Origin: Candidatus Nomurabacteria bacterium GW2011_GWD2_36_14
GTDB taxonomy: Bacteria > Patescibacteriota > Minisyncoccia > Phycocordibacterales > UBA9973
NCBI GenBank assembly: GCA_000991405.1
Contig: LBRL01000001.1
Span: forward strand, 315,200 to 379,199
DNA length: 64,000 bases
Direction: 5' to 3'
Position numbers and translations under genes: made by a program. Each line of letters starts with the position of its first letter. Position 1 is the stretch's first letter. The notes under the pieces are model-generated. The model was given only the letters and a program-made list of their open reading frames with translations, was not told the DNA's origin and did not search any database. Positions 39,585-64,000 of this stretch are shown piece by piece.

Positions 39585-42500
39585 TTACTGTAAGTCAGCA
39601 GTTGCTGTCATAAGACTACCTCTTCCAAAGAATCCATCAGATCTAATCTTGTGTTCGGCCTGCCAAGCCTTAACCTTATTGGCCGTTCCTCTTCCAAAGA
39701 TTCCATCAGCATCTATACCAAGGAAAGCTTGAAGAATTTTGACATCATCCCCTCTTGTACCTTGTCGTAGAGTTCTATTGATCTTTGCTAAATCTTCTGC
39801 GTCAACAGTATTGTCACTTCCTGCAGAAACATCTGCACTTTTTGAAGCACCCGTACACTGGTATTTAACTATACAACCACTTGCATCTTTGACTGCTTCT
39901 GTCTGATAAGCACCACAAGATACTGGTGCAACATATGTAGGACAAGTATTTGTTGATGAAGAATTAATTGTGAAATAATTATTACTTTCGTCAGAAATAC
40001 CCTTATAGTCAGAAATTGATATTTTGAATTTTTTACTACCAATAGCAAGTATATCTTTCAATCCATCATACCCTACTATTTTATCAGTAATAAACGTGTA
40101 AATTCCAGTATTTAATACAGTATTGGCTACTTTAGAACCATCAGTATTTTTTGTAAAACCTGCAAGAGGAAAAGAAACTCCAGATTGATCAGTCAAATAC
40201 GCATAAACTCCTGTTCCTGAAATATTACAAGTAGACCACCCAACTGTAATTTGTTGTCCTGTAGTAAATGCTTCTCCTCCATTTGGAGTAGCAACAGTTA
40301 TAAATGGAGAACTATTTGAAGGACACATTACAGATTCATTAGATTTAATTGTAAATGAACTATCGGAATTATCGCCTGCAACATTTTGACCATCATAAGA
40401 GGCTTGTTGTATAATACCAATCTTGTAATATTTACCACTTTGAGGAGTACAATTTTTTATACTATAATCATCATTCTTTATTGTTACTAGTTCATATCCA
40501 TCATTTGTGGATAATAAACTGCTATTATTTAAATCACAACCCTTTGCTGTATTGCCGTTATCAAACAGACCTGACAAAGAAATTCTTATTTTTTCATTTG
40601 CATCAAGATTAGAACTCTTCCACTTTACTTCAATTTTATCTCCAACTTTATAAACCTCCCCACCATTTGGACTCAAGACTGTAATCGAAGGAGTAGTAGT
40701 TCCACATGGCAATGTTGTAAATGTTCCATCAGAAGTGTAACCTGTACCAACTGTATTTGATAATGCCCCATAGAAGTAATACTTTGTACCACAAGTTAAA
40801 CCTGTTACAGAAACATTATAAAAATCTGTTGATATAGTATAATCAGTGCCCTTAACTGGAGTTGAAGGACGAGGAGTTTTACCATAATAAATGTATCCAA
40901 TAGAAGAATTAGAAACAGGATAACCCATTAATATGACATTTGCTCCTAATACGGCAGAAGTCTGAGTAACTGACGTTGCTAATGGATTTGAGACAACGGG
41001 GACAGATGGAGTGGTTGAGGAAGCCCTAATTGAAAATGTATTATCAGATTCATCTTGAGAAACATAACCTGCCGGCCCATTAAATTTTACTAAAATTTTA
41101 TATCCATTAGATAAATTAGAATTTGACGGGATGGTTAGAGTAATAGAATCATCACCTACAACTTCTGCCCTAAAAGAACCAAAATTATAAGTATCACTAT
41201 ATGCATTTTTTAAAAAAACTGAAACAGTATCACCTACCTGTGAATCATTATTTGTCATTTTATATTTCACTGTAATTTGCTGACCAACAGTATATTGCTC
41301 TCCTCCATTTGGAGAAAGAAGTGTAATTGAGGGAGATACTGAGGCTGGAGTTGTAAAGGAAGAAGTGCTTCCACAAAATGGAGAACTTATAGATCCCTGA
41401 CCAGTAGAAAGAGACGTTGCAGCAACGCAAGCTCTATAAGAATATTTTGTATTTGGCAACAAGGTTTTAATATCAAATTGATAAGTAAAATCTCCACTCA
41501 TACTAATTGAAGAATTACTTACATTTGCCTTGCTTGAGTTTGGTAAATTAGAATACACTCCATACTCAAACCATACTGTAGCACCATTGTAATTAAAAAT
41601 TCCACCAATATTTGATTGACCATTGTTTACAAGCTTACCTCTAAATTCTCCTTCATTACTATATGGATAAGTATAAGCATAATTACTATCAACAACTCCC
41701 CCCAATGTTGTAAATGTTCCCTCTGGTGAATATCCAGTTCCTGTGGCATTTGTTGCATATCCGCGGAATTTGTATGTTGTATTGGGAGTTAAGCTAGTGG
41801 CATATACTAACGTCTGCTGACTAGCTGATTTAACACAAGTAGCACCATTTGTTTTACTTGGAGCAGAAATACTTGCACTGTAGCAAACTCCATTTTCTAA
41901 TATAGTGAGAGGATACCCATTGCTTGTTACTGTCGCACCTAGCATTGCTCTATTTTCTGTAATACTTTGAGACGTAGGATATGATACAGTTGGAACACTA
42001 GAATAAGCACAACTGACTTGCTGAGTTGCTAAGCCTTCACAACTTCCACCATTTAAAGGAGCTGGGTTTGTACAATATCTTACTTGTGTTTGACCATTAC
42101 TTGTACAACTTCCAGAATTAGTCCAATCTGTCCAACCACCGGGAACAGGAGTTACTGAGGCTGGGGTTGTAAAACTTACTGTATTGCTCCAATTGGTAGC
42201 TGTGTCATTTATAGCATAACTAATTGCTAAATATTTTGTATTTGGAGTCAATCCTGTTCTATTTTGTGAGAATGGTCCAGTAGTTTTCCCTGCATCATTT
42301 AAGCAATTACTCATAGGACCTTGTGTCTCAAGTCCATAACAAGTACCGCGAGCTATAAGTAAAGCTGGGTAGCCTAAAGATACAACGCTTGAAGATATTG
42401 TAACTCCAGTAGATGTAAAATTAGAAACAGTAGTAGTCCCTAAAGTTGGAGGTTGTGGAATATCTGCGACAGAACCCTTCAGGCTTATTTTCAATGAAGC

Positions 42501-42620
42501 AATCTCCCTCTGTAGATTTTGTATTTTTAGTAAAGTGTCACTCAACACAGATGCATGCACTTGCCCGATCCCTACAGAAAGGAATCCGAAAATGAACAGC
42601 CCAACCAGTAACTTTTTCAT
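39585..42620 (-). CDS. Large secreted surface protein with FN3-like repeats, SPNGGE-motif domains and a C-terminal peptidoglycan-binding (PG_binding_1-like) domain
   Basis: Signal peptide MKKLLVGLFIFGFLSVGIGQVHA. There are repeated TxYxF/Y...G.GYS..G.FTT blocks and three (L/V)SPNGGE...W modules. The C-terminal end has DDVKILQAFLGIDADGIFGRGTANKVKAWQ. Confidence 0.55.
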   Translation of the reverse strand: MKKLLVGLFIFGFLSVGIGQVHASVLSDTLLKIQNLQREIASLKISLKGSVADIPQPPTLGTTTVSNFTSTGVTISSSVVSLGYPALLIARGTCYGLETQGPMSNCLNDAGKTTGPFSQNRTGLTPNTKYLAISYAINDTATNWSNTVSFTTPASVTPVPGGWTDWTNSGSCTSNGQTQVRYCTNPAPLNGGSCEGLATQQVSCAYSSVPTVSYPTSQSITENRAMLGATVTSNGYPLTILENGVCYSASISAPSKTNGATCVKSASQQTLVYATSLTPNTTYKFRGYATNATGTGYSPEGTFTTLGGVVDSNYAYTYPYSNEGEFRGKLVNNGQSNIGGIFNYNGATVWFEYGVYSNLPNSSKANVSNSSISMSGDFTYQFDIKTLLPNTKYSYRACVAATSLSTGQGSISSPFCGSTSSFTTPASVSPSITLLSPNGGEQYTVGQQITVKYKMTNNDSQVGDTVSVFLKNAYSDTYNFGSFRAEVVGDDSITLTIPSNSNLSNGYKILVKFNGPAGYVSQDESDNTFSIRASSTTPSVPVVSNPLATSVTQTSAVLGANVILMGYPVSNSSIGYIYYGKTPRPSTPVKGTDYTISTDFYNVSVTGLTCGTKYYFYGALSNTVGTGYTSDGTFTTLPCGTTTPSITVLSPNGGEVYKVGDKIEVKWKSSNLDANEKIRISLSGLFDNGNTAKGCDLNNSSLLSTNDGYELVTIKNDDYSIKNCTPQSGKYYKIGIIQQASYDGQNVAGDNSDSSFTIKSNESVMCPSNSSPFITVATPNGGEAFTTGQQITVGWSTCNISGTGVYAYLTDQSGVSFPLAGFTKNTDGSKVANTVLNTGIYTFITDKIVGYDGLKDILAIGSKKFKISISDYKGISDESNNYFTINSSSTNTCPTYVAPVSCGAYQTEAVKDASGCIVKYQCTGASKSADVSAGSDNTVDAEDLAKINRTLRQGTRGDDVKILQAFLGIDADGIFGRGTANKVKAWQAEHKIRSDGFFGRGSLMTATADLQ

Positions 42621-44869: not shown

Positions 44870-47800
44870 CTATTCTTCTGTATTTGATAGAGCAACAGGT
44901 GTTTCTGGTGCTACGGTTGGAGACACTTCTACGGCTTCTGGCTCTGGTACTACTACTGGCTCTGGAGCGACAGGCTCGCTTGAAGTGGGAGGAGTAGTGT
45001 CCTCTGTAGTAGTATCCTCTACTTCAGTATCAGTAGTAACTGTCGTATCAGGAGTAACCACTGGATCAGGTGTTGGTTCTGGGTCTGGAATTGTTTGAGG
45101 TTCTGGGATTTGAGTATGGGTGTTCTTAAATTCTTGAATCATTATTCGAAGTTGATCCTCATTTAAACATTCATTATCACTAGTACAAAATTCTTTCGTT
45201 TCTACTCTGTCGCTCTTCATAATTTTCGCAAAAATAATTTCAATTCCATTTGTTGCACTTGCTAACCAACCTTTCAAATTAGATATAAAAGAAGTATTGA
45301 TATCAATATTTTCTATGCTTGTAATCTTCAAATTCATTTCCTTGATAGCTTCTATGGTATAAGGGATTAGGTTGGTATAGGAGATGGATTTAAGATTTAG
45401 CCCTGTAATAGGATCAACTTTCGGATCAGTGAAGACCAAGCTTGGGAAGATTTGCTCCATCTCTTGAGCAATGAAGCCGATGTGCCGAGCATCCGTATCT
45501 GACTCAGAATTCCAATTGTAATTTACTGGAGTTAAGTAAGTGAGCTTTTCGAGGGTAGACTTACCATTCATATCGGGAATTGTTTTAAGAATAAATTCTA
45601 TGTCTTCTAGTGTAGTAATATTCTTCTTTAAGTTTATATCAGAAGAACAGACCAACGCTGTCGTCAGAGGGCTTATATCGCAATACCCCGTCGAACTAGT
45701 AAAGCGAGCAACCGTCCCCACCACCGAAGCCCCTCCAACATAGAGTACATTCCCTGTTCCTATCGTAGCCGTATTGCTCCCATTCCCCACCGCATTGTAC
45801 CCTATCACGATTTCATTCTGATTATTATCTGCACCTGCTTTAGTATCTCTACCGATATATACTCCATAATCGGAAGTAGTGTTGGCGGTTGTGCCGTCGG
45901 CAATGTATCTACCTGACCTATAACCTAGTGCAGTATTAGAACTTCCTGTTGTATTTAAGTTGAGAGAGCCATATCCATCAGCAGTATTAGAATCTCCTGT
46001 CGTGTTAGAATAAAGGGATTCAATTCCATTTGCCGTATTGTTACTTCCTGTAGTATTGGAATAAAGGGAACGTTCTCCATTTGAGGTATTGTAGTTTCCT
46101 GTAGTATTGGAATATAGTGAAGCATATCCATTTGCAGTGTTATAAAATCCTGTGGTATTTGAGTAAAGGGAAGAATGTCCATAAGCAGTGTTGTAATATC
46201 CTGTGGTGTTAGTTGTTAGAGAATATGCTCCATTTGCAGTGTTGTAAATTCCTGTGGTATTAGCTAAAAAAGAATTTAACCCATTTGCAGTATTTTGATA
46301 CCCCGTAGTATTATATCTTCCTGCCCCCACCCCTATAAATGTATTCCCTGAAGCAGTATTTGCTCTCATTTCAATACGAGCTGTACCATCGGAAGATTTA
46401 AGATTGACAAGAGGAGTGGAGACAGCAGTGAGTGACTTGATAGAGATGACTATTGTTCCGTCGAAGTCTGTTGTAGGAGTGATGGTAAGTGAAGCAGTAG
46501 AAGTTGTAGTTGGACCCCATGCTCCTGTAGCTGTTAGACTTGAAGCACTCTGTCCTCCAAATCCGATTGTGAATGAACCTGCTGTTCTACCTGTAACAGT
46601 GTAAGCTATTTGGTATTTGGTAGCATTGACTGCAACTTTATCATGCGAAAGTACAGAGGTGTTACCTACTGTATGAGTCCAGCCTGTAGCAAAGTCCCCT
46701 GTCCAGTCTGTAGAAGTCCATCCTGTATCTAGTAGAAATTCTGCTGAGTAAGTAGGCAAATCATTGACTGCTAATCCCTGAATGTCGAGCTTCCCTGTGG
46801 GGGTGGTGGTGCCGATGCCGACGTTGCCAAGGTTATTTATCCTTAAATTTGTAGCCCCATTACTATTGAAGTTATAAGTCATGTAGCCATCTGAATCCTG
46901 ACCGTTAAAAGTAGTGGTGACATCCGTAACTTCAATTTGTTGATAGGTATTATTTTCAAATCCGGGACGAGTTATTCTCATGTTTCCGATAACATCCAAT
47001 TTTCCTAAGGGACTCGTCGTCCCAATCCCGACATTGCCAGAATAATCAATTCTCATTCTTTCGGTCGATACTGTATTATAATTTCCTGTGCCAAAAGATA
47101 ATGATACTCGAGGAGACGCTGGGTATCCGCTTGCAGAATCATCATTTATAGCTTTAATAAAACCAACACTATGAGCACCTATTCCTGTTGAATCTGATGT
47201 ATTAAAATCAATCTGTCCTAATATATCATTATGTATCCAAGAAGAACCACTACGAGAATCTTTAATAGTTAATACTGGGATAGAACCTTCTAAGTGGAAA
47301 AGTGATGCTGGATTCGTCGTCCCAATACCGACAGAGCCAGATCCATTTATTCTCATTCTTTCAACTATTCCTGTTCCATTTAGATAGTTACTGAAAGACA
47401 AGTAACTTGTCCCTCCGGTTGATTCTCTTATTCCCGCTATTTGGGAACCAACTGTCTCATCAGTAGAACTCGTAAAATGAATTATTTCTCCTGCTCCATC
47501 TGTGGCAGAATCAGAATCTAGAATTAAAAGTTTTTGTGGAGTTCCTAACGTGTTTTGAACATGTAATTTTGATCCAGGTGCCGTTGTCCCAATACCGACG
47601 GAGCCATTCATGTCTATTCTTACCTTTTCATTATATCCACCAGTTGCATTATTTGTTGAAAAACTTATATAACCACCACTTCCTGTCCAACCTGTGCCAT
47701 CACTACTATCTAAACCAAAATTAAGACCACCATTGGTGCTTGGTGCTCTATATGATTTATAATGAGAAACACCAATATCTGTAAAATAACTTGCGGAACT

Positions 47801-50263
47801 ACCTTGAATACGTAATACATCAGTATCATCTGAAATATCACCGAAAATATGTAATTTTTGTTGAGGCGTCGTCGTCCCAATCCCTACCTTCCCATCATTG
47901 AGTATCGTCATCGCTTCAGTTGCTCCATTGTTCCCTACTAGGAAATGCATATCGGCTCCTGTGGCTCCAACACCGGAGGTGGTTTGAAGAGTTAGGTCTG
48001 AAGTAGTAGCAGAACCTCCGAGAATTAGAGGAGTTGTGATGTTGGTTGTAAATACAGGACTCTCTAGGAATGCAAATGTCTTTCTTGCTCCTCCTGTTGT
48101 AATTGTTCCATAGTATGCATCAGTTAGAAACTCTACTGCTCCTGCTTCTGGAGTTGTAAGTAATGTCCCTGAAGTGAATTTTAGTGGAGCAGTTCCTGCT
48201 GTGGCTGTTCCTGCTTTCAAATGCAAGGCTGCTGTAGGAGATGATGTTCCAATCCCGAGGTTTCCGACAAAGTAATTATTGCCTGCACCGAGAACGTTAA
48301 GATTTTGGGCAATGGTTGTGGAAGCGTTGATGGTTAAGGTTTGAAGAGAGGGTGTGGAATTAAACATTCCATAAAGCAAAGCTCCTGCTTTATCACCAGC
48401 AGTATTTGCTCGGTCTTGATTGTCAACATAGAAAGAGTTAGAACCAAGTTCATATGCACCTGCAAACATTCCAAACATTACATTACTATTTCCAAATAGA
48501 TTATATCCTGCTCTATATCCTACAGCTGTGTTATATGAATATGGAGTAGAGCCATTATAGCCAGTTTCTGCACCAATAAGAGTATTTTGTATAAAGACAC
48601 CGGTACCACTATAACCAGCACCATCCCCAATTGCTGTGTTGTTGCTTCCTGTGGTATTGGTGCAGAGAGCACAATCCCCAATTGCTGTGTTGGAGCTTCC
48701 TGTGGTGTTGGAGTAGAGAGACTTACCCCCATTCGCTGTGTTGTAATATCCTGTGGTGTTGGAGTAGAGAGAATTATAACCATTTGCTGTGTTTCTGTAT
48801 CCTGTTGTGTTGGAGTAGAGAGAATGATATCCTACTGCAGTGTTGGCATCAGCTGCGTTAGTTGAAGTTCCAGAGCCTGAAGTTCCTGCTTGATAACCAA
48901 GAAAAGTGTTATATTGAGCTCCTGTCACAATATTGAGTCCTGCATCTTGGCCTACTTTAACATTGAAGTCTGTATTATCTTGAGATAATGGTAAATTATT
49001 TATTGCTGATGTTGTAATATTATACGTACCAAGATTTAGATTTGCATTTGCTCCAGTGTATGGGACATACGAACCAAGTGAGCTTGCTGTTGCATAATAA
49101 CTTCCATGTTGTCCGTCTAGTAAATCGGCGTTTAAGTTTGTAACAAGGCCTGTGTTGGAAGTGGTGAAAGTATTAGCACCTAGAGCTATGTTACCTCCCA
49201 TAGTAAATCCTGCTACTGTGCCTGTGAAGGTAGGACTAGTAAACATTGTGGCTTTGCTTTCGTTGGTTACATTTCCTAGCCCGACGTCAGTTGCTGTGAC
49301 AGTACTCCATGCTGGGACTGCGCCGTTGGTACCTGTGCCTGTCATACTTAAGAAGTTCTTGGTTGTTGTTGTATTGGGAGCAAGTAAGGTAGACGTATCT
49401 GTATCGGACTGATATGGGAGGGAGCCTAAGAGAGTGGTGGAATTGCCACCTGTCAGATTATTGGCCTTGGTGATAGTTCCGACAACGGAAGCATTGAGGT
49501 TTGGAATTGTGACAACACCACTGCCAAAAGTTACAGGCCTGTTGGTAGTAGTATTGATAGACAGTGTCCCGCTTGCATTGGTTCCGTCAATCAGAGGATT
49601 AGTACCAGAGAGGTTGATAGTGTTGCCAGTTATAGTTGTGGTCCCTGTAAATGTCGGGCTGTTTAAAGTTCCACTTTCGGTAATATCATTTGAGTTATTG
49701 GAAATATTTTTATTAACAGAATCATAAATGCGATCAACTTGAAGAGAATTGAAAGAAGCATTGTTGGAGTTAGACCGCTCTAGATTCTGTAGGCGAACAA
49801 TAATACTCGGATCAGTCTGGTTTATAAAAATCGTAGTAGGTCGCTCAATGATACGCTCAACAACTTTAGTTGGAGTTAGTATTTGAGTTGGCAATAATTT
49901 GGTATTGGCTTCTACTTTGTCTTTCGTTTCTATTTTATTTTTCGCTTCTACTTTTTTATTTATTTTTAATACTTTAGGTTGAGTGGCTACAACAGTAGAA
50001 ACTTTTGGTTTAGAATCAGATAAATTAATAAATTCTTTTACTTTATTCCCTATTTGATCTATGAATTCTTTGTATTTATCAAAGGTGGGAGATGTTAATT
50101 GTCTGAATGAGTAGGGAGTATTTAATTCTTGTGTATTTATCTCTGTGTTTGTCTGCGTATCAGACACAGCAAAAGCATTGGTATAAAAACCGAAAAATAA
50201 TACCAAATATAACATCAACAATAGTTTAACTAAGTAAATTTTTGATGACCTAAAATTATTCAT
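44870..50263 (-). CDS. Giant (1797-aa) secreted fibre-like protein with Hep_Hag/YadA-head-like 14-aa repeats, G(N/S)VGIGTT.P..L(H/D)V repeats, a C-terminal peptidase-S74 intramolecular-chaperone-like domain, and a Pro/Thr/Glu-rich tail
   Basis: Signal peptide. Repeats such as NTANGYNSLYSNTTGYY occur about 12 times, and GNVGIGTTTPTGKLDIQG occurs 6 times. Near the C-terminus, SDINLKKNITTLEDIEFILKTIP...YNW.....HIGFIAQEMEQIFPSLV matches the S74 chaperone signature. Confidence 0.6.
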   Translation of the reverse strand: MNNFRSSKIYLVKLLLMLYLVLFFGFYTNAFAVSDTQTNTEINTQELNTPYSFRQLTSPTFDKYKEFIDQIGNKVKEFINLSDSKPKVSTVVATQPKVLKINKKVEAKNKIETKDKVEANTKLLPTQILTPTKVVERIIERPTTIFINQTDPSIIVRLQNLERSNSNNASFNSLQVDRIYDSVNKNISNNSNDITESGTLNSPTFTGTTTITGNTINLSGTNPLIDGTNASGTLSINTTTNRPVTFGSGVVTIPNLNASVVGTITKANNLTGGNSTTLLGSLPYQSDTDTSTLLAPNTTTTKNFLSMTGTGTNGAVPAWSTVTATDVGLGNVTNESKATMFTSPTFTGTVAGFTMGGNIALGANTFTTSNTGLVTNLNADLLDGQHGSYYATASSLGSYVPYTGANANLNLGTYNITTSAINNLPLSQDNTDFNVKVGQDAGLNIVTGAQYNTFLGYQAGTSGSGTSTNAADANTAVGYHSLYSNTTGYRNTANGYNSLYSNTTGYYNTANGGKSLYSNTTGSSNTAIGDCALCTNTTGSNNTAIGDGAGYSGTGVFIQNTLIGAETGYNGSTPYSYNTAVGYRAGYNLFGNSNVMFGMFAGAYELGSNSFYVDNQDRANTAGDKAGALLYGMFNSTPSLQTLTINASTTIAQNLNVLGAGNNYFVGNLGIGTSSPTAALHLKAGTATAGTAPLKFTSGTLLTTPEAGAVEFLTDAYYGTITTGGARKTFAFLESPVFTTNITTPLILGGSATTSDLTLQTTSGVGATGADMHFLVGNNGATEAMTILNDGKVGIGTTTPQQKLHIFGDISDDTDVLRIQGSSASYFTDIGVSHYKSYRAPSTNGGLNFGLDSSDGTGWTGSGGYISFSTNNATGGYNEKVRIDMNGSVGIGTTAPGSKLHVQNTLGTPQKLLILDSDSATDGAGEIIHFTSSTDETVGSQIAGIRESTGGTSYLSFSNYLNGTGIVERMRINGSGSVGIGTTNPASLFHLEGSIPVLTIKDSRSGSSWIHNDILGQIDFNTSDSTGIGAHSVGFIKAINDDSASGYPASPRVSLSFGTGNYNTVSTERMRIDYSGNVGIGTTSPLGKLDVIGNMRITRPGFENNTYQQIEVTDVTTTFNGQDSDGYMTYNFNSNGATNLRINNLGNVGIGTTTPTGKLDIQGLAVNDLPTYSAEFLLDTGWTSTDWTGDFATGWTHTVGNTSVLSHDKVAVNATKYQIAYTVTGRTAGSFTIGFGGQSASSLTATGAWGPTTTSTASLTITPTTDFDGTIVISIKSLTAVSTPLVNLKSSDGTARIEMRANTASGNTFIGVGAGRYNTTGYQNTANGLNSFLANTTGIYNTANGAYSLTTNTTGYYNTAYGHSSLYSNTTGFYNTANGYASLYSNTTGNYNTSNGERSLYSNTTGSNNTANGIESLYSNTTGDSNTADGYGSLNLNTTGSSNTALGYRSGRYIADGTTANTTSDYGVYIGRDTKAGADNNQNEIVIGYNAVGNGSNTATIGTGNVLYVGGASVVGTVARFTSSTGYCDISPLTTALVCSSDINLKKNITTLEDIEFILKTIPDMNGKSTLEKLTYLTPVNYNWNSESDTDARHIGFIAQEMEQIFPSLVFTDPKVDPITGLNLKSISYTNLIPYTIEAIKEMNLKITSIENIDINTSFISNLKGWLASATNGIEIIFAKIMKSDRVETKEFCTSDNECLNEDQLRIMIQEFKNTHTQIPEPQTIPDPEPTPDPVVTPDTTVTTDTEVEDTTTEDTTPPTSSEPVAPEPVVVPEPEAVEVSPTVAPETPVALSNTEE

Positions 50264-55492: not shown

Positions 55493-56902
55493 CTAATTCA
55501 TCCTCTCTTTTATATAGTCCACAATATCTTCTTTTTTAATTCTCTCTTGCTGGCCTGTATCACGGTCACGAATAGTTACAGAATCATCGGACAAAGTATC
55601 AAAGTCTATAACAATACACCAAGGTGTACCTATCTCATCTTGTCTTCGGTATCGCTTGCCTATGTTACCATTATCGTCCCAGACCACCCAGCCAAATTCT
55701 TTCTTTAGTTCTCCATATACACTTTTAGCATAAGTTACAAGCTCTGGTTTATTCTTGAGTAGTGGTGATACACAAGCTTTATAAGGAGCAACAGATGGAG
55801 GTAATTTTAGGTAAACTCTCACATTATTTCCTTCGCCACTTGCCCCGTCGGAAGTACTCTTTCCTTCGGGGTCTTCTCTATAACATGAACACAATGTTGC
55901 AAGTATAGCTCTGTCTACACTGATAGTAGGCTCAATAACGTGAGGAATAAATTTCTCGCCGGTAGCTTCGTCCATCATCCACATAGATTCACCCGAGAAT
56001 TCCTGATGCCTCTTCAGATCAAAGTCTCCTCTATGAGAGAGCCCTGTTAGTTCCTTTGTTCCAAAGGGATATTCAAATTCTAAGTCAACAGTCTTGCGAC
56101 TATAGTGGGCACGAGCAGTCTCAGGATGTTCTAGAGGATGAAGCTTGGCTGTATCAACTCCAATCTTGGAAAGCCATTCCTTTTGTTCTAACAAGAAGTT
56201 GTCAAAGTAAGCCTCCCAAGGAGAAGTCGGGTGTATAAAATATTCAAATTCCATTATTTCAAATTCGCGTAGTCTATAAATAAAGTCACGAGGTGTAATC
56301 TCATTCCTAAATGCCTTCCCTATCTGCGCGATACCAAAAGGAATTTTGGGCGATAAAGATTGCAAAACATTTTTAAAGTTTACAAACATACTCTGAGCTT
56401 CTTCTGGGCGCAAGAAAGTATGGACGGATGTTTCTTCAACTGCACCCATCTTTGTCTCGAGCATAAGATTGAACTTACGAACATCGGAATACTTATTTCC
56501 ATCTGGACTCTTTAGTTCTAACTCTTTTATTTTCTGATCCATCTCTTCTACTGTAAGCTTCTCAGCATTTACTCCAGCATCTTCGAGAATATGGTCAGCA
56601 CGATACCTTTTCTTGGTTACTAAATCATCTACCAAAGGATCTATGAATTCACTTGTGTGTCCTGAAGCATCCCAAACTCTTGGGTGCATAAGTATAGGGG
56701 TGTCTATAAGATAAATATTTTCTCTATTCTTAACAAAGTATTCAATCCAAGAATCCTCAATGTTCTTTTTCAAAAGAGAACCTAAGGGTCCATAATCGAA
56801 AGTTCCAGCCAGTCCTCCATAAATCTCAGACCCCGGATATACAAATCCCCTTCTTTTACAAAGTGATATAATCTTTTCCATTAATTTTTCGTCTTTTTCC
56901 AT
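55493..56902 (-). CDS. glyQS: Glycyl-tRNA synthetase (alpha2 dimeric type)
   Basis: RRGFVYPGSEIYGG...G.YDYGPLG class II motifs and a C-terminal anticodon-binding domain. The gene contains a repeat insert at 55843-55874. Confidence 0.85.
   Translation of the reverse strand: MEKDEKLMEKIISLCKRRGFVYPGSEIYGGLAGTFDYGPLGSLLKKNIEDSWIEYFVKNRENIYLIDTPILMHPRVWDASGHTSEFIDPLVDDLVTKKRYRADHILEDAGVNAEKLTVEEMDQKIKELELKSPDGNKYSDVRKFNLMLETKMGAVEETSVHTFLRPEEAQSMFVNFKNVLQSLSPKIPFGIAQIGKAFRNEITPRDFIYRLREFEIMEFEYFIHPTSPWEAYFDNFLLEQKEWLSKIGVDTAKLHPLEHPETARAHYSRKTVDLEFEYPFGTKELTGLSHRGDFDLKRHQEFSGESMWMMDEATGEKFIPHVIEPTISVDRAILATLCSCYREDPEGKSTSDGASGEGNNVRVYLKLPPSVAPYKACVSPLLKNKPELVTYAKSVYGELKKEFGWVVWDDNGNIGKRYRRQDEIGTPWCIVIDFDTLSDDSVTIRDRDTGQQERIKKEDIVDYIKERMN
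55843..55874. repeat. 32-nt GC-rich repeat GCCCCGTCGGAAGTACTCTTTCCTTCGGGGTC inside glyQS, in frame
   Basis: 31 of 32 positions match 61358-61389 in ileS. It encodes DPEGKSTSDGASG. Confidence 0.65.
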
Positions 56903-56904
56903 AT

Positions 56905-58773
56905 TTAATTTATAACACGTTCCTGCCCTGATTGAAAGCTTGGGTCGCCAGTCAAGAAAGTGTTAATCGGGCCTCTCTTACTGCTAATACTTGTACCAGT
57001 AAATGCATCCGTCCCAGTCAAGAACAAATCCTTCATAAGTTGAGGTACACTTCCGACTTGAGAAAGCGATGGAGTAAGAGCAATAGTGAACGTCGCTTCA
57101 CGATTCAAGCTTCCTCCTGTATTTGCTTTGACAGATCCAATATTCCAAATGACTTCACGTGTTGATTCATTGTAGGAAATATTCTCACGTGGAGATACAG
57201 GAGCCACCCACTTCACATATACAGGTATCGAGGCTCTTGCGACAGCACCACTCACAGCATTGGTAGAGTTCGAAAGAGTCCAAGTTACATTGTACTGTGT
57301 TTCTTTCTCAGCCTTGGGAGGTAGAGCTCCACTCTTAAACGTGGCCGAAGAGGCTATCTGGAAGTCAGATAAGACCTTCACAATCTTCTTTGAGAAATTG
57401 TTCACATCTGTATAAGTAGAACCGAGTGATGGTTGCTTGCCTTTTATACTTACATCGAAAGTCATCTGTGGGTCTTTCACAACATTCTGTCCTCCAATCA
57501 ATGACAAGGATTTAAGACTGAAGCTGACTTCCCCCTTCTCTCCCGGCTCAATATCTGACAATGTCCACACAGAATTCTTGTCCCACACGATACGATTATT
57601 GAAAGAGTCATAGAATCCTTCTTGTGAATTAATAGATGACCTGTCTACGACGTTACCTCCAATATTTGCAATAATCTCTCCGTCTGTAATCCTGTTGGGT
57701 AAATTGTTGGCCCATGCAATTCGTACGTTGATGGTCTCTCCTGCAGAAGTTGTATCGGCGACTAGGATATTGGCTTCAATGAAAGGCTTCACTATAGTCA
57801 CACTATGTAGGATAGAACTATATACCACATCAACAGTAGATCTATCGGTGGGTCTGGTCGTCCCTGCATACACGTGGAAGACTTGCTGGTCTTGATCTAG
57901 TCCTATGATTCTACCTTTTACCACCACCGAGACTGGGTTCGTCAGACTAAGAGCACTCAAGCTCCAAATAGAATTACCGAAAGTTGGAGCAGGCACTGCA
58001 CTTTCATAAATAAAATTATTGGGGTAAGTTAATTGCATTACAGTATCACCATTAGGTAATGCCGTATTCAAAGTTGCCTTAACTGTAAACATTACTGGTT
58101 GATCTGAAGTCACAGTATCTGGAGCTTCTATAGACAGAGTTAGGGGGGATAAGCTTATATTGACTCCATAATTTATTTCCTTTGTGAAGATGGCATTGGA
58201 ACCTTCGGGGTGATAGTCAAGCTTGATATTTACATTGCGATCTGTCTTCTCATCTCCATACAAAATAACTTTTATATCTTTGGTGATAGTCTCACCCGGC
58301 TTGATAGTCCCTATATCTATACGTGGTAATCTGGTCACGTCAGCTACATTGTCGCTAGCTCCGCTAGGGTAAGATATTTGTAGATTTGCAAGTACAAGGT
58401 TCGTCTTGTTGCGGTTCACTATTTCTACTTGCAAAGGAAGCTCCTCCCCTCCTTTAGTAAAGGCACTACCGGCAACTTTGATATCTATATTGTCGCTTGA
58501 GACAGAAGTCCCTCCTGTATAAAATTTATACGAAGCAACCCCCACTGCTATCACAAAGAAGATGATGGCAAAAATAAAGAACTTTTTAAAAATAGATGTC
58601 TTAGGTTTTTTCATTACGTTCATAGAGTTAGTAAATTCTTCATTCTTCCATTCTTGATCTACCTTATGTTCTATCGGGTGAAGTATGCCTTCCTTAGATC
58701 TGTGAGTCACAGTATCTCTTGGCTCATAAAGGCGACGCTTAATATCTTCAATTTTATTTTCATTTTCTTGCAT
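56905..58773 (-). CDS. Hypothetical membrane-anchored protein with a large beta-rich extracytoplasmic domain
   Basis: About 65 aa of cytoplasmic N-terminus, one TM segment (FFIFAIIFFVIAVGVA), then 540 aa with no recognised motif. It is co-oriented with recO and glyQS. Confidence 0.35.
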   Translation of the reverse strand: MQENENKIEDIKRRLYEPRDTVTHRSKEGILHPIEHKVDQEWKNEEFTNSMNVMKKPKTSIFKKFFIFAIIFFVIAVGVASYKFYTGGTSVSSDNIDIKVAGSAFTKGGEELPLQVEIVNRNKTNLVLANLQISYPSGASDNVADVTRLPRIDIGTIKPGETITKDIKVILYGDEKTDRNVNIKLDYHPEGSNAIFTKEINYGVNISLSPLTLSIEAPDTVTSDQPVMFTVKATLNTALPNGDTVMQLTYPNNFIYESAVPAPTFGNSIWSLSALSLTNPVSVVVKGRIIGLDQDQQVFHVYAGTTRPTDRSTVDVVYSSILHSVTIVKPFIEANILVADTTSAGETINVRIAWANNLPNRITDGEIIANIGGNVVDRSSINSQEGFYDSFNNRIVWDKNSVWTLSDIEPGEKGEVSFSLKSLSLIGGQNVVKDPQMTFDVSIKGKQPSLGSTYTDVNNFSKKIVKVLSDFQIASSATFKSGALPPKAEKETQYNVTWTLSNSTNAVSGAVARASIPVYVKWVAPVSPRENISYNESTREVIWNIGSVKANTGGSLNREATFTIALTPSLSQVGSVPQLMKDLFLTGTDAFTGTSISSKRGPINTFLTGDPSFQSGQERVIN

Positions 58774-58797
58774 GTCTATTATTATATCATAATTAAT

Positions 58798-59382
58798 TTA
58801 AAGTTGACTCTCGTTCAGAGCTTTATTGATATGAGAGATTATAGACCTTTTCTCTCGAAGCAAGGTTTCCGTCTGACTCAAGTCTATCTTCCCTCCGAGG
58901 TAGTCGGTGAGCATGAGCGAGTCCCCGATATAACCCAGTGCATTCATAATACGAAGCACCAGATGAAGCTCAAGTGCCTCACGAGAAGATGCAGATACAT
59001 TCATGTCATCGAGCAAGAACAGGACTTGTATAAAGTCATCAAATATCTTCTCATTGGATTCTTCTCCATCGCAAAGTCTTTCAAGAAGTTTACTTATTCG
59101 AGCAATCATTAGAAGCGATCTCTTAGAAGAGCGAGCGAAAGGAAAGGTGGAAATATTTGAAGCTGTTGTTATCCGCCATATATCCTTGCCTCTGACGAAG
59201 TCAATATGAGAATACGACAAGTCCTGCAGAGAGAATCGAAGTTTTGACTTATGAAGTCTTATGCCTTGCACCATCGCCCGCACCAAGCCCATCTCACGTG
59301 TATAAACCGTCAGCATCTTATTCGCCTCACCTTTATTGTGAGAACTTAGTACAAATCCATGTGTGTGATAAATATGATGCAT
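58798..59382 (-). CDS. recO: DNA repair protein RecO (short)
   Basis: N-terminal OB-fold pattern GFVL......GE.....V.T...G.....V.G.R.....L. Confidence 0.55.
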   Translation of the reverse strand: MHHIYHTHGFVLSSHNKGEANKMLTVYTREMGLVRAMVQGIRLHKSKLRFSLQDLSYSHIDFVRGKDIWRITTASNISTFPFARSSKRSLLMIARISKLLERLCDGEESNEKIFDDFIQVLFLLDDMNVSASSREALELHLVLRIMNALGYIGDSLMLTDYLGGKIDLSQTETLLREKRSIISHINKALNESQL

Positions 59383-60020
59383 TATATTTCTTCTTCTTTG
59401 CCTATTTCTAATTTCCTAAAAAGAATATCATCTTCTTTTAAAATTGTTTCTGGAATTCTCCATGCTGAAGTTGAGAAGTCCTGCAATATCGCATCATGCA
59501 CTCCGAAGCAAATCCTGGGTCTAATATGCTTTGCGTATTCTATCGCTTCAGATAGTTTCATCCATGGACCTGCTACAGGGAGAGCAAGTATATCCACGTC
59601 TACATCTGGGTAACTGAAAGAGTCTCCTGCATAGCAGAGATTATCTATCATGTAGCCAGTATTTTGAACTCTTCCGAAATCTTCATATATCTGTGCATGG
59701 ATATTACCAAAACCAGAGATAATAATTCCTTCCAATTCATACTTTTCTCCTTCTTCTACTTTTATATATGGTATACCATTTTGATCTAGAATATTTCCGA
59801 CAGAAGTATTGGTTATCACAACAGCACTTGGATTGTTTTTCAAAACATCCTTCAGAGAATCCACATGCAAATGGTCTTGGTGTTCGTGTGTAATCAGAAT
59901 CGCATTTATATTGGTTTCTCCAACTTGGAGTATCGAATAAGCCCCAGGATCGGTCATAATTCTGACCCCCTCTTTAGGTTCCACTACGAAACAGCAATGC
60001 CCAAGTTTCTTAATCTTCAT
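59382..60020 (-). CDS. MBL-fold metal-dependent hydrolase
   Basis: ILITHEHQDHLH motif (HxHxDH). Confidence 0.7.
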   Translation of the reverse strand: MKIKKLGHCCFVVEPKEGVRIMTDPGAYSILQVGETNINAILITHEHQDHLHVDSLKDVLKNNPSAVVITNTSVGNILDQNGIPYIKVEEGEKYELEGIIISGFGNIHAQIYEDFGRVQNTGYMIDNLCYAGDSFSYPDVDVDILALPVAGPWMKLSEAIEYAKHIRPRICFGVHDAILQDFSTSAWRIPETILKEDDILFRKLEIGKEEEI

Positions 60021-60024: not shown

Positions 60025-63000
60025 CTATTTTACCAAATTTACAACAAATACTAAACCATCAATTTTTATTTCCCTAAATGCTTCAGTAGAAGCATCGGGC
60101 GATCCAATTTCATTGGATTTAGCCTCACCAGAATTATCCTTAAATTGTAAGTCTTTTGCACCGACAGCTTTCAGAAGCTCGTTTTTCCATTTGTTTATGA
60201 GTTCTTGTCCATCTACAGAAGTTTCAATTTCAAGAGCTATTATATCGTTTGGATTAAGTCCTGCTTTCTTTCTCATATCCTGAATAGCACGGACAAGCTC
60301 ACGGTAGTTCCCTTCTTGTTTTAACTCTTCTGTAATATTAGTATCTAGTTCAACTTTTAATTCTTCGCCTTTTATAAATTCTATTTTTTTAATATTTAAT
60401 TCGTCTTTTAAAATTTCAATATACTCATTACCTAATTTATAATCTACTTGAATATTATTTGATTCATTATTTAATAAATATGTAACTAACAATTTATTGA
60501 GTGGCTGACGAACAGGAATATTATTCTTTTGACGTTGTTGTAATCCAAGAGTTACAATTTCTCGTGTTGTTTCCATATTTATACGAACTTCTGAATGCCA
60601 AAATTCTCTTTTTGATTCTGGCCATTCTACAAGATGCACACTTTCTTTATCCTCTTCATTCTTTAATTTCTGCCAAATATCTTCAGAAGCAAACGGTGCA
60701 AATGGAGCCATAAGTGTCACCAATGTTTTTAATACATAATACAATGTTTGTTTAGCCTCAACATCCCCATCCTTAAGTCTTTCACGGCTTCGACGAACAT
60801 ACCAAGTAGATAAGTCATCCATAAAGTCGCGAATTGCTCGAACGGGTTCTAGAAGTTTATAATTTTCCATATTTTTAGTAATCGTATCTGTAAGCTCTGA
60901 CAGACGAGCAATAATCCACTTGTCCAAAGTGTTTCCTGACTCAATTTTAGTAGTTGAACTACTAAAATTTTTCTCTAGGCTTTTATCTCGATAAAGCTCG
61001 TAAAAAGCTAAAACGTTATATAGCAAATTAAAAACTTTACTATGAAGTTCCGCTACTGTCTTCTCATCAAAACTTTTAGCTTCGCCAGGTTGATTGACTC
61101 CATACATCCAAAGACGAAGGGTATCTACTCCGTATTTATGCATCATCTCCCAAGGGTCTACAATGTTGCCAAGACTCTTACTCATCTTCTTTCCATTGGC
61201 ATCAAGAAGAAGCCCCAGACAAATCACATTCTTGTATGCCTTGCCCTTACCCATAAGTACACCCACAGCATGTAGTGTATAGAACCATCCACGAGTCTGA
61301 TCGAGTGCTTCTGATATAAAATCAGCAGGATATAAAATCTGTTGTTCTTTATTCCCTGCCCCGTTGGAAGTACTCTTTCCTTCGGGGTCAAATGGATAAT
61401 GGTCTTGTGAGAATGGCATTGTACCTGAGTCCAACCAGACATCCAGAACTTCTTTCTCTCTTTTTAAATTTCCTCCGCAACTACATACCAAGCTTATCTC
61501 ATCTATAAAAGGCTTATGTAGATCAAGCTCATAATTCTCATTATGAGGAAGAGCTACAAAGTTCAATTCTCTTATCTCAGCATTTCTCAAGTATGGAGGA
61601 AAGTTTTCGTCAGTCGGTAATGTCTCGTAAGAGAAGCCTTGCACCACATGACACAGTGCACTAGTCTCCCCAGCATGACCTATGAGAAGAATATTCTTAC
61701 CAGAGTATTGGCTATCTATTTCATAAATCATTTTCCCTACTCGATTAATAACTTGCGAATAACTCTCTCCGTTTGGCATCGCTTCAAATGGATGCTCCTT
61801 ATACTGATTGCAATAAAATTCTTCGAAAGCTTCTCGCGACTTTCCTTGATAATCCGAACTTACATCCCATTCTTTCTCAAGATCGTTATAAATAACTTTA
61901 TCCAGTGGATAGCCAATCTGCTCACAAAGAATTTTTGTTGTTTCTCTAGCTCTCTCTAGAGGGGATGCTATGATGACATCAATTTTCTCTTTAAAATTTT
62001 TAGAACTTTCTATTACTTGCTCTACCCCAAATTTTGTAAGTTTGCAATTATTAGCTTCTTCATCATTCATTACAGTCTCGCTAACATTACATTCTGCCTG
62101 TCCATGACGCATGACCCAGTACTTGTTCCCTGACTTTTTAACTTTTGACTTTAAACTTTCTAAACTACCTACAACTTCCCTATTATTACATTCCGCACAA
62201 GTCCAAATAGGTAAAGGTGTACCCCAATAACGCTCACGAGAGATAGCCCAATCCTTTATGTCTTTCAACCATTCACCGAAACGCCCTTCTTTAATATATG
62301 AAGGCTCCCAATTTATACTTTTATTTTCTTCTATCAACTGATTTTTAATTTTCGGATCTGACATCTTGATATACCAAGAATCACGAGCATAGTATATAAG
62401 TGCCGTCTTACAACGCCAGCAGTGTGGGTATGAGTGCTCATACTTTTCTTTCTTAAACAGAAGTCCTCGGTGTGCTAAATCTTTTATAATATCTACAGCC
62501 ACCTCCTCGTCGCGAACAAATCGCCCTTCAAGAAAGTCTGTACCTGCTAAATACTTTCCATCAAGTCCTACCATGTGATGCTTCGGTAAGCCTACTTCAT
62601 TACCCAAAGCAAAGTCATCTTGCCCATACATGACAGCCGTATGCACAACTCCTGTACCATCTTCTGTAGTTACAAAATCCGCCGAGTAAACCTTGAATGC
62701 TTTTTCAAGCTTGGGCTTCTCAGTATCTGAAATAGTATTTGAAAGATATGGATATAGAGGTTCGTATTCTAAGCGTGTAAGTATAATGTGTGGTATAGTC
62801 TCCCATGTTGAAAAATTATCCTGTTTATACTCAGAAAAAATTTTATTAGCTAATTCTTCTGCTAAAATATAAAATTCATTTCCAACTTTAACTTTAATAT
62901 ATTCAATATCTTTACCTATCGCTAGTGCTACGTTTCCAGGAAGAGTCCAAGGTGTCGTTGTCCAAGCAAGTATATAAGTATTATCCTGTCCTTTCACTTT

Positions 63001-63627
63001 AAATTTCGCATATACAGACAAATCTTTCACATCCATATACCCTTGAGCAAGTTCATGCGAGGAAAGAGTCGTACCACAACGAGGACACCAAGGCACAACC
63101 TTGTAGTCTTTATAAATCAATCCTTGTTTATCTGTTTCTTTTATAACATTCCAAACGGACTCAATATAATCATTGTGATAAGTCACGTAGGCATTCTTCT
63201 GGTCTACCCAGTAACCCATACGTTCAGTGAATTTCTCCCAGAGATCAACATACTCCCAGACACTTTCTTTGCATTCTTTATTGAACTTTGCAATTCCGTA
63301 TTCTTCAATAGCTTTCTTGGAAGTTAGTCCCAACTTCTTCTCAACTTGAAGTTCAACAGGAAGTCCATGAGTATCCCAGCCACCCTTACGACGCACATGA
63401 TATCCTCGCATAGTTTTATAACGAGGAATCACATCTTTGAAAGCACGAGCCTCCAAGTGGTGAATTCCCGGCTTGCCATTGGCAGTTGGAGGACCCTCGT
63501 AGAAAACATACTCACCCTTCGGAGCATCTTTCTCCAAGCTCTTTTCGAAAATTTTATTTTCTTTCCAGAATTTTAAAACTTCCTCTTCTCTTAAAGCTCC
63601 CGCTGATTTTTTGTTTTCTTCACTCAT
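60025..63627 (-). CDS. ileS: Isoleucyl-tRNA synthetase carrying an inserted histidine-phosphatase (PGAM-type) domain
   Basis: HIGH as PGIHHL and KMSKS as KMSKSLGN. The editing domain and Zn motifs are present. About 190 aa (RHGQ...SPLERARET...GHAGE) are inserted between ...PIWTCAECNN and ...LHKPFIDEI. A second repeat insert lies at 61358-61389. Confidence 0.9.
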   Translation of the reverse strand: MSEENKKSAGALREEEVLKFWKENKIFEKSLEKDAPKGEYVFYEGPPTANGKPGIHHLEARAFKDVIPRYKTMRGYHVRRKGGWDTHGLPVELQVEKKLGLTSKKAIEEYGIAKFNKECKESVWEYVDLWEKFTERMGYWVDQKNAYVTYHNDYIESVWNVIKETDKQGLIYKDYKVVPWCPRCGTTLSSHELAQGYMDVKDLSVYAKFKVKGQDNTYILAWTTTPWTLPGNVALAIGKDIEYIKVKVGNEFYILAEELANKIFSEYKQDNFSTWETIPHIILTRLEYEPLYPYLSNTISDTEKPKLEKAFKVYSADFVTTEDGTGVVHTAVMYGQDDFALGNEVGLPKHHMVGLDGKYLAGTDFLEGRFVRDEEVAVDIIKDLAHRGLLFKKEKYEHSYPHCWRCKTALIYYARDSWYIKMSDPKIKNQLIEENKSINWEPSYIKEGRFGEWLKDIKDWAISRERYWGTPLPIWTCAECNNREVVGSLESLKSKVKKSGNKYWVMRHGQAECNVSETVMNDEEANNCKLTKFGVEQVIESSKNFKEKIDVIIASPLERARETTKILCEQIGYPLDKVIYNDLEKEWDVSSDYQGKSREAFEEFYCNQYKEHPFEAMPNGESYSQVINRVGKMIYEIDSQYSGKNILLIGHAGETSALCHVVQGFSYETLPTDENFPPYLRNAEIRELNFVALPHNENYELDLHKPFIDEISLVCSCGGNLKREKEVLDVWLDSGTMPFSQDHYPFDPEGKSTSNGAGNKEQQILYPADFISEALDQTRGWFYTLHAVGVLMGKGKAYKNVICLGLLLDANGKKMSKSLGNIVDPWEMMHKYGVDTLRLWMYGVNQPGEAKSFDEKTVAELHSKVFNLLYNVLAFYELYRDKSLEKNFSSSTTKIESGNTLDKWIIARLSELTDTITKNMENYKLLEPVRAIRDFMDDLSTWYVRRSRERLKDGDVEAKQTLYYVLKTLVTLMAPFAPFASEDIWQKLKNEEDKESVHLVEWPESKREFWHSEVRINMETTREIVTLGLQQRQKNNIPVRQPLNKLLVTYLLNNESNNIQVDYKLGNEYIEILKDELNIKKIEFIKGEELKVELDTNITEELKQEGNYRELVRAIQDMRKKAGLNPNDIIALEIETSVDGQELINKWKNELLKAVGAKDLQFKDNSGEAKSNEIGSPDASTEAFREIKIDGLVFVVNLVK
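61358..61389. repeat. 32-nt GC-rich repeat GCCCCGTTGGAAGTACTCTTTCCTTCGGGGTC inside ileS, in frame
   Basis: Near-identical copy of the glyQS repeat. It encodes DPEGKSTSNGAG. Confidence 0.65.
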
Positions 63628-63629: not shown

Positions 63630-63950
63630 GTTTTTTATTAATTATCTATAATAATTTATTAATTTTCTCTTTCTACATATATACGCCCCTGCGTATATAT
63701 GTAATCTGTATAAAAAAACTCGTCCACGTACAACAATTACAATAATTGCTATACAAGGACGAGCTTCTATGCTTTCGCATGTAGACCGTGGTACCACCTC
63801 GTTTTTTACCCGCCGAATTGCGCGGGACTTCTCATTTAAAGGGTTCTACTTGCTTTATAAATAAAGCTTTCTTCCCAATACTTGCCCCGTTAAATTTGTT
63901 CTTTATTTAACTGGGGCGAAGAGTGATATCTCTTCTTCGTATACTTAAAT
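63630..63950 (-). promoter_or_regulatory. Candidate T-box riboswitch leader of ileS (Ile specifier AUC)
   Basis: Minus-strand transcript contains AACGAGGUGGUACCACGG, matching the T-box consensus AGGGUGGNACCGCGG. The UGGU matches discriminator A. A downstream hairpin CUCGUCC...GGACGAG plus a U-run is at plus 63711-63763. An upstream hairpin GAAGAG-AUAUCA-CUCUUC presents AUC-A in its loop (plus ~63921-63940). Confidence 0.5.
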
Positions 63951-64000
63951 AATAGCATTAAAATGATAATTTGCAAGAAAAATGATTTTGGTGTAATATC

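Follow-up and report, generated by a model that had tools for sequence, protein, structure and literature searches.

The isoleucyl-tRNA synthetase (IleRS) encoded in a 64,000-nucleotide stretch of the Candidatus Nomurabacteria bacterium GW2011_GWD2_36_14 genome (contig LBRL01000001.1; hereafter the window, in whose coordinates all positions are given) appears to carry a second, intact enzyme within its catalytic body. By sequence profile and structural model, about 200 residues of the ileS product, placed in the zinc knuckle of the second connective peptide (CP2), are a branch-1 histidine phosphatase domain of the PGAM superfamily. A first-pass annotation of the window, made from the letters alone, had described a histidine-phosphatase domain at 61560-62121 inside an IleRS of 1200 residues. 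Both elements of that description held: the open reading frame (ORF) is of the proposed length and its product matches the TIGR00392 equivalog profile in two stretches with 884.8 bits against a cutoff of 621.4, and the proposed interval corresponds to residues 503-689 on the minus strand, the core of the phosphatase domain.

Position and identity of the insert

Where does the insert interrupt the synthetase? The ileS product is collinear along its full length with Thermus thermophilus IleRS (1ILE, 786 bits), and likewise collinear with the type-2 enzyme (IleRS2) of Priestia megaterium (8C8U-W, 785 bits). The alignment to 1ILE breaks cleanly, such that residues 13-498 correspond to T. thermophilus residues 13-482 and residues 701-1035 correspond to residues 488-819, with the IleRS reading frame resuming on both sides of the break. 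The net insertion of about 200 residues falls between the CxxC and CxC halves of the CP2 zinc knuckle and replaces a linker of about 6 residues in 1ILE, as the first-pass annotation had supposed in assigning this position to a short zinc-knuckle linker. That annotation placed about 190 residues between two flanking strings, RYWGTPLPIWTCAECNN (residues 466-482) and LHKPFIDEISLVCSCGG (residues 703-719). The insertion itself is borne out, with the correction that 220 residues separate the two strings. The helix REVVGSLESLKSK is a canonical IleRS2 element and lies outside the insert.

The Pfam family His_Phos_1 (PF00300) is matched between two stretches of the synthetase family tRNA-synt_1, and the histidine-phosphatase signature is complete, with RHGQ at residues 507-510, SPLERARET at residues 555-563, and GHAGE at residues 650-654, just as first read from the sequence. 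An AlphaFold2 (AF2) model of the insert alone has a predicted local distance difference test score (pLDDT) of 85.5 and a predicted template-modeling score (pTM) of 0.83. The Foldseek neighbors of this model are PspA of H. thermophilus, mycobacterial GpgP, a riboflavin-pathway HFP, CobC, and PhoE. Set against PGAM-type structures, a comparison foreseen at the first pass, the modeled domain is closest to PspA, GpgP, CobC, and PhoE (probability 1.00, E ~1e-11, template-modeling score 0.66-0.71). Similarly, sequence-profile matches in the PDB return the same list of phosphatases at E = 6e-21 to 1e-17, the best of them being PspA (4IJ5, 6e-21).

To which member of the superfamily does the insert correspond? 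The first-pass annotation had allowed for either a phosphatase or a mutase, and it is the phosphatase that stands. A glycolytic cofactor-dependent phosphoglycerate mutase (dPGM), or another core mutase, carried on IleRS might be imagined from the membership of the insert in the PGAM superfamily and from the reduced genomes and frequent gene fusions of the Candidate Phyla Radiation (CPR). This explanation is very improbable. The dPGM models all score far under their cutoffs (NF038349, dPGM_arch, 49.4 versus 225; NF002339, PRK01295, 28.1 versus 316; NF002901, GpmB, 26.3 versus 261), the length of about 170-200 residues fits the short phosphatases, phosphatases also head the list of PDB matches, and the mutases of the PDB align over only about the first 100 residues, the N-terminal half. 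Judged by sequence, the insert is a phosphatase-type member of the superfamily rather than a true mutase.

The named phosphatase families were likewise rejected as identities for the insert. CobC was tried with TIGR03162 (53.3 versus 162.9) and NF011580 (49.4 versus 250); PspA with NF045917 (26.4 versus 350), 4IJ5 remaining the best PDB match; phosphoserine phosphatase 1 with NF009994 (27.7 versus 277); and SixA with TIGR00249 (24.4 versus 74.5), a match confined to residues 504-583. The best NCBIfam phosphatase match is NF005567 (RNase H / acid phosphatase), with 60 bits against a cutoff of 326.

Conservation and selection

We aligned the 120 best full-length homologues, which are 61-100% identical to the query. 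The catalytic His, the pair of Arg residues, and the C-terminal His singled out for checking at the first pass are conserved in every one, and the complete set of residues invariant in all 120 sequences comprises R507, H508, G509, N514, R559, T563, E586, and H651. Among them are the family's whole phosphate pocket, its nucleophile, and its general acid. These eight positions do not fit a divergent connective peptide without conserved catalytic residues, the description that the first-pass annotation had set against its own. Mean identity to the query is 46% in the insert and 75% in the IleRS core. Relative to the two closest relatives, the ratio of nonsynonymous to synonymous substitution rates (dN/dS) is 0.04 in the insert and 0.10-0.11 in the remainder of the gene. 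Among 150 distant representatives the RH pair is retained in every scorable domain copy, and in relatives that contain two to four copies the full catalytic set is retained in each scorable tandem copy. Comparison of embedded and free-standing forms shows that the conserved residues are limited to the generic phosphate pocket, while the cap region is variable. The insert is acidic, with a mean net charge of -7.7 and an isoelectric point of 5.5.

Could the insert nonetheless be a catalytically dead structural or tRNA-binding insertion, that is, a lineage-specific connective peptide? Class Ia synthetases tolerate many lineage-specific insertions, and at long range the insert evolves faster than the core. 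On the other side stand the complete catalytic set in the 120 homologues and in all tandem copies, the low dN/dS, and the acidic surface. Because the catalytic set is invariant in a domain that is only 46% identical on average, and because dN/dS is 0.04, a dead spacer is very unlikely, and the dead structural insert offered as one option in the first-pass annotation loses its footing. An electrostatic tRNA-binding role as the main function of the insert was rejected on account of its acidity. We regard the insert as under strong purifying selection and, from its sequence, as probably catalytically competent.

A 106-residue, TTG-initiated ORF runs antisense to the phosphatase segment (61639-61959, plus strand). 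We take it as most likely spurious, a shadow of the AT-rich coding strand.

Table 1. Features of ileS, its inserted phosphatase domain, and its leader in the window.
Feature	Position	Strand	Remarks
ileS, 1200-residue type-2 isoleucyl-tRNA synthetase	60025..63627	minus	Single uninterrupted ORF; host protein
Inserted histidine-phosphatase module, residues 499-700	61528..62133	minus	Net insertion relative to canonical IleRS2
First Cys pair of CP2 zinc knuckle, C477-x-x-C480	62188..62199	minus	N-terminal anchor; both Cys in 120/120; aligns to CxxC of 1ILE
Second Cys pair of CP2 zinc knuckle, C715-x-C717	61477..61485	minus	C-terminal anchor; C715 in 119/120, C717 in 120/120; aligns to CAC of 1ILE
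His_Phos_1 (PF00300), residues 504-671	61615..62118	minus	82.4 bits, E = 4.2e-23, cutoff 21.7; profile positions 2-167 of 194
RHG motif: R507, H508 (predicted phospho-accepting nucleophile), G509	62101..62109	minus	Invariant in 120/120
N514, phosphate-pocket Asn	62086..62088	minus	Invariant in 120/120
R559, second phosphate-pocket Arg, in SPLERARET	61951..61953	minus	120/120; 100% in embedded and free-standing relatives
E586, predicted general acid/base	61870..61872	minus	120/120; E or D in distant relatives
H651, C-terminal pocket His, in GHAGE	61675..61677	minus	120/120; 100% in distant relatives
KMSKS loop, residues 814-818	61174..61188	minus	Invariant in 120/120
Non-canonical class I signature G54-I-H-H57 (GXHH replacing HXGH)	63457..63468	minus	Identified from sequence
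T-box-like leader upstream of ileS, with GGTGGTACCACG	63752..63962	minus	RF00230, 19.7 bits, E = 0.022; gathering score 93

The host synthetase and its leader

Judged by profile and motif, the host protein is a genuine IleRS. Pfam identifies tRNA-synt_1 (E = 2e-113 over its two stretches), Anticodon_1, and DUF5915, the last being the C-terminus of type-2 IleRS. Among the 120 homologues the editing motifs of the first connective peptide (CP1) are kept, with WTTTPWT in 118, GTG[VI]VH in 119, and Asp338 in 117; the Cys pairs of the CP1 zinc site show little or no variation; and conservation extends to the pocket motifs W[LF]DSG and DQTRGWF. The class I signature is GIHH in 110 of these insert-bearing proteins and VLHT at the same columns in five. 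Exchange of the first and third positions of HXGH, which yields GXHH, confers mupirocin hyper-resistance on IleRS2 with little loss of activity (PMC10485003), and the ileS product combines this motif with an IleRS2 scaffold and a DUF5915 C-terminus, the sequence features of the hyper-resistant class (PMC10485003). Among the NCBIfam models, the product falls short of the MupA and MupB exception cutoffs (778-779 versus 1900) and of NF040702, the IleRS containing an N-acetyltransferase domain (319 versus 1999), and no GNAT domain was found in it with Pfam.

How is the gene expressed? A T-box-like leader lies upstream of ileS (Table 1), and a terminator-like stem followed by a U-run lies downstream of GGTGGTACCACG, at about 63715-63765. 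The exact 12-mer GGTGGTACCACG occurs upstream of ileS in 26 of 53 related loci, and the Rfam T-box model matches all five related loci that were tested, with 34-55 bits and E-values from 7e-4 to 2.5e-9. The leader in the window and those of the related loci all score under the RF00230 gathering threshold, and we therefore call them T-box-like rather than certified members of the family; the Rfam model appears to under-score CPR leaders. The leader lends indirect support to a housekeeping role, and within the 64 kb of the window the insert-bearing ileS looks like a housekeeping IleRS gene induced by uncharged tRNA-Ile.

Distribution and insertion sites

How widespread is the nested phosphatase? 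In a collection of 5.8 billion proteins, all 120 best matches contain PF00300 inside IleRS, and those that are named come from Nomurabacteria, Paceibacterota, and other Patescibacteria. A scan of GTDB species genomes with a profile of the insert found at least 342 loci, all in Patescibacteria; among the matches listed, the best locus is that of Ca. Nomurabacteria GW2011_GWE2_34_25, at 91% identity. The same insert is present in many related CPR synthetases, for which a survey had been suggested at the first pass, and the CPR origin presumed there is borne out. An exhaustive hidden Markov model search of 1.8 billion cluster representatives returned 330 proteins at E <= 1e-30; among the top 150 of these, the domain is embedded in a larger protein in 111 and free-standing (about 190 residues) in 39. 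A word-index search with the insert alone gave nine matches.

An assembly or gene-calling artefact, in which a chimeric contig or a frameshift has joined two genes, might be suspected from the metagenome-type source and from the many database relatives that are fragments on short contigs. It can be practically dismissed: the gene is one uninterrupted ORF that is in the IleRS frame on either side of the insert, and the identical architecture recurs across hundreds of assemblies made independently in different projects, with contigs of 0.3-0.7 Mb among them.

The relatives differ in copy number and in the place of insertion. Each contains from one to four phosphatase domains, with two or three in some IleRS proteins and four in one protein. 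The query uses site A, the CP2 knuckle loop. In relatives the domain is also found directly past the second Cys pair (site A'), past KMSKS in the loop after 'TYA..D', where the anticodon-binding domain begins (site B), and past WFESGSMPYA/HYPF.N (site C). The domain has also entered valyl-tRNA synthetase (ValRS). For example, the 1161-residue protein P0130 scores 411 bits to valS and 199 to ileS, and contains four His_Phos_1 copies in tandem or near-tandem, one before DWCISRQ and three after WWGHRIPVWY, with all catalytic residues intact. Five further ValRS-type clusters contain PF00300 (P0278-P0282). In a nearest-neighbor analysis of the domain copies, which at 30-45% identity is of low resolution, the ileS-adjacent free-standing proteins cluster together and the ValRS copies are mutually nearest.

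In NCBI records, many of the insert-bearing synthetases (P0014, P0026, P0037, P0040, P0042, and others) bear only the name 'class I tRNA ligase family protein', possibly because equivalog naming is disturbed by the insertion. An essential gene is in this way systematically under-annotated in metagenome-assembled genomes of Patescibacteria.

One relative has accumulated several domains. P0200, a eukaryote-like IleRS2 of 1066 residues, contains an IS200-like Y1 transposase domain at residues 340-461, inside the CP1 region, together with a phosphatase at 680-854 and a GNAT acetyltransferase at 935-1063 after the HFPFEN loop, and its ORF stops short of KMSKS. The gene may be in decay, or it may mark a hotspot at which domains are captured in frame.

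The ileS locus and its split form

Where might the nested domain have come from? We retrieved the contigs of ten free-standing close relatives. In seven of the ten the phosphatase gene lies directly upstream of ileS, with the two genes overlapping or 8-113 nucleotides apart. The four complete ileS genes downstream of free-standing phosphatases score 711-932 bits, above the ileS cutoff, and are without the insert; the IleRS partners of the free-standing proteins belong to other IleRS2 sub-types, with the motif pairs HYGH...KLSKK and GVHH...EMHKS. No T-box motif was found upstream of the free-standing phosphatase gene in any split locus examined. The gene order is argS-phosphatase-ileS-recO at split loci and argS-ileS[phosphatase]-recO-orf622-class II aminoacyl-tRNA synthetase (aaRS) at nested loci. 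Because the argS/recO order is common to both, the split and nested states are, as read from the sequences, forms of one ancestral locus, and we infer that the phosphatase was relocated within this locus, in one direction or the other, between a gene beside ileS and a domain inside it.

The surrounding synteny, argS-ileS-(variable gene)-recO-orf622-class II aaRS, is highly rigid across the clade (window 55493-59382, minus strand; loci L001-L080): recO is present in 55 of 61 loci, orf622 in 53 of 61, and argS upstream in about 50. We accordingly down-weighted adjacency as proof of functional coupling, since recO and orf622 are as syntenic with ileS as the phosphatase is. The free-standing phosphatase can also persist without an adjacent ileS. 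Loci L086 (5001-6162) and L081 (2616-6613) have in common the phosphatase gene and the downstream genes for a 175-residue protein, a 127-residue protein, a DUF7619/CLIPPER protein, and an M16 peptidase; the ileS that stands between these genes in L081 is absent from L086.

In the window, the variable position is held by a metallo-beta-lactamase (MBL)-fold hydrolase gene (Lactamase_B_3, E = 5e-22; 59382-60020, minus strand), which starts 4 nucleotides past the ileS stop. The hydrolase was considered as a phosphodiesterase partner of the insert and rejected, as it is found at that position in 7 of 61 related loci and is a variable cargo gene. The product of orf622 (56905-58773, minus strand, 622 residues) has no Pfam match and an apparent N-terminal hydrophobic segment.

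Three further genes of the window, apart from this locus, were noted. A 1007-residue PurL (FGAM synthase II; 5173-8196, minus strand) scores 519 bits, just under the cutoff of 526, and its match begins at about residue 227, leaving an N-terminal extension of about 220 residues; many CPR genomes would not be expected to encode purine biosynthesis. A large ORF at 39585-42620 (minus strand, 1011 residues) matches no NCBIfam family at E <= 1e-20, and another large ORF of 1797 residues lies at 44870-50263 (minus strand).

Proposed function of the nested phosphatase

What does the phosphatase do on a synthetase? We propose, with moderate confidence, that the insert is an autonomous small-molecule phosphatase tethered to IleRS. 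The ileS product would then be one bifunctional protein, a housekeeping type-2 IleRS joined to an autonomous branch-1 histidine phosphatase of the small PhoE/CobC/PspA/GpgP type. The phosphatase would be looped out of the CP2 zinc knuckle, its base pinned by the two Cys pairs, so that the aminoacylation core would be undisturbed. By analogy with the family mechanism, H508 would attack a phosphomonoester bound by R507, R559, N514, and H651, E586 would protonate the leaving group, and the phospho-histidine intermediate would then be hydrolyzed. The module most likely acts in trans on a small phosphorylated metabolite or nucleotide. Hydrolysis of a nucleotide or alarmone, the other function offered in the first-pass annotation, may still apply. 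Its tether to IleRS, and occasionally to ValRS, would ensure obligatory 1:1 co-expression and co-localization, here under T-box control, with no geometry-specific hand-over at the synthetic site. We favor this explanation over a single pocket aimed precisely at a bound CCA end because the domain is acidic, its cap is variable, its insertion sites are non-equivalent, and its copy number varies.

Several observations weigh against this proposal. The basic linker K-x-K-[TV]-K-K-S-G-N-K-Y is conserved in the 120 homologues, in which H695 and D702 are invariant; the conserved linker positions are K497, K498, S499, N501, Y503, H695, and D702. Such a linker suggests a fixed orientation of the phosphatase relative to the IleRS body. 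The full-length AF2 model, with a pTM of 0.47 and a pLDDT of 23-45 in the Rossmann core, is too poor to give the direction of the pocket, its alignment probably being shallow. Repeated insertion of the domain at no fewer than four IleRS sites and into ValRS looks like selection for physical linkage. As the insert reaches none of the NCBIfam equivalog cutoffs, homology gives it neither a substrate nor a substrate class. Finally, a second ileS may lie elsewhere in the genome, outside the 64-kb window.

The repeated insertion could mean a direct role in aminoacylation. This is the second explanation, direct coupling, in which the phosphatase removes a phosphate that blocks or poisons class Ia aminoacylation and so constitutes a true third active site of the Patescibacteria class Ia synthetases. 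Its candidate substrates are of two kinds: a tRNA whose CCA end bears a 3'-phosphate or 3'-pyrophosphate, installed by toxSAS toxins or left by nucleases, and a competitor for the ATP site, such as a phosphorylated adenine nucleotide, alarmone, or by-product. Pyrophosphorylation of the tRNA CCA end, which blocks charging, is established (PMC11559606; 10.1101/2021.04.30.441581). In favor of direct coupling stand the repeated recruitment of the domain family to IleRS, to ValRS, and to a gene that abuts or overlaps ileS, expression under a T-box that senses uncharged tRNA-Ile, and the conserved linker. We nevertheless consider direct coupling possible but doubtful. The insert is acidic rather than basic, its conserved residues are limited to the generic pocket, and the insertion sites are non-equivalent, with site B past KMSKS at the anticodon-binding domain and site C in a loop that, by structural reasoning, is remote from the active-site face. 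One positioned site would also be difficult to square with several tandem copies, and adjacency to ileS is weak evidence where synteny is rigid in general and recO is equally linked. Likewise, neither the insert, nor its free-standing relatives, nor the MBL-fold protein matches a PADLOC defense family, which counts against direct coupling. On the same result we rejected a defense or antitoxin link of the insert.

A third explanation is that the domain is a protein phosphatase, acting on phospho-His, phospho-Ser, or phospho-Thr of IleRS or of a translation component, or that it is a phosphometabolite sensor that modulates IleRS. Branch-1 members include the protein phosphatases SixA, PGAM5, and Sts; the insert shows weak similarity to SixA (24 bits); and a tether to a specific protein would suit a dedicated target. 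The SixA cutoff is missed by a wide interval, as given above, the nearest neighbors in both sequence and structure all dephosphorylate small molecules and have a cap subdomain, the conserved locus encodes no kinase, and the tandem copies are left unexplained. We judge a protein phosphatase or sensor to be improbable.

Why does the nested phosphatase matter? Hundreds of species in a major uncultivated radiation of bacteria have an apparently active phosphatase as a constant element of their essential IleRS. The pattern is unusual: one locus has both a split and a nested form, the insertion sites number four or more, as many as four copies stand in tandem, and the domain has spread to ValRS. This comparative pattern makes the purpose of the phosphatase-synthetase linkage directly testable. 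One outcome may be a new step in tRNA charging or in its protection; another may be a clean natural example of a neighboring gene turned into a nested domain in a reduced genome. Were the doubtful third active site to prove true, aminoacylation would depend on, or be protected by, a built-in dephosphorylation, aaRS enzymes would gain a new accessory activity alongside editing, and the repeated recruitment to IleRS and ValRS and the placement of the gene beside ileS would be explained. In practical terms, the insert-bearing proteins are poorly named in NCBI, are unmentioned in a large IleRS survey, and carry the GXHH hyper-resistance motif.

Comparison with known systems

The aaRS are among the best-studied enzymes, and the catalytic domain known to be nested in them is the one for editing. 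Bacterial aaRS with a foreign enzyme inserted in the catalytic body are, to our knowledge, very rare. No account of a synthetase with a histidine phosphatase turned up in the searchable literature, from which some subscription journals are absent. Although aaRS are preferred hosts for domain insertions (PMC13114784), the nested phosphatase is not mentioned in that 2026 survey of domain insertions, which covers aaRS hosts, nor in a 2026 preprint annotating the architectures of 96,219 IleRS sequences. We provisionally regard the phosphatase-in-IleRS architecture as undescribed. The novelty claimed in the first-pass annotation is thus upheld for the searchable literature and must be qualified for the public databases, where the proteins themselves are abundant under the names IleRS or 'class I tRNA ligase family protein'. 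What is unusual is the combination; the IleRS is itself an ordinary GXHH-type IleRS2 and the phosphatase is ordinary-looking and PhoE/CobC/PspA-like.

With the type-2 IleRS enzymes of known structure (1ILE, 8C8U-W), the ileS product shares the CP1 editing domain, two zinc sites, KMSKS, and the ARD/DUF5915 C-terminus. It differs in the CP2 knuckle, where the extra residues form an independent enzyme domain. Its GIHH signature is like that of the mupirocin hyper-resistant IleRS2 type (PMC10485003). Similarly, the insert has the same fold, size, and catalytic residues as PspA (4IJ5), PhoE/YhfR (1EBB, 1H2E), CobC (6E4B, 6NRU), GpgP (4PZ9), and the riboflavin-pathway HFP (9MMH). These small phosphatases stand alone and are usually dimeric, whereas the insert is about 20% identical to them and is nested in a synthetase of the monomeric type.

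Other enzymes offer partial parallels. The Rv2228c-type RNase H / acid phosphatase (NF005567) likewise joins a CobC-like His_Phos_1 domain covalently to a nucleic-acid enzyme; it is an end-to-end fusion with a different partner, whereas the IleRS insert is nested. NF040702 describes an IleRS with an extra catalytic domain, GNAT, although the query does not match the profile. The CP1 editing domain of IleRS, ValRS, and leucyl-tRNA synthetase is, like the insert, a catalytic domain nested in the class Ia Rossmann/connective-peptide scaffold; in contrast, the guest described here is a phosphatase without a known role in amino-acid or tRNA chemistry. Finally, the closest relatives outside IleRS are the free-standing Patescibacteria phosphatases P0005, P0206, P0273, and P0274, which score 150-185 bits to the insert profile and have the same catalytic set and the same argS-ileS locus. 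Unlike the insert, these are separate polypeptides of about 195 residues, and their partner IleRS enzymes have short knuckle loops and are without the T-box motif.

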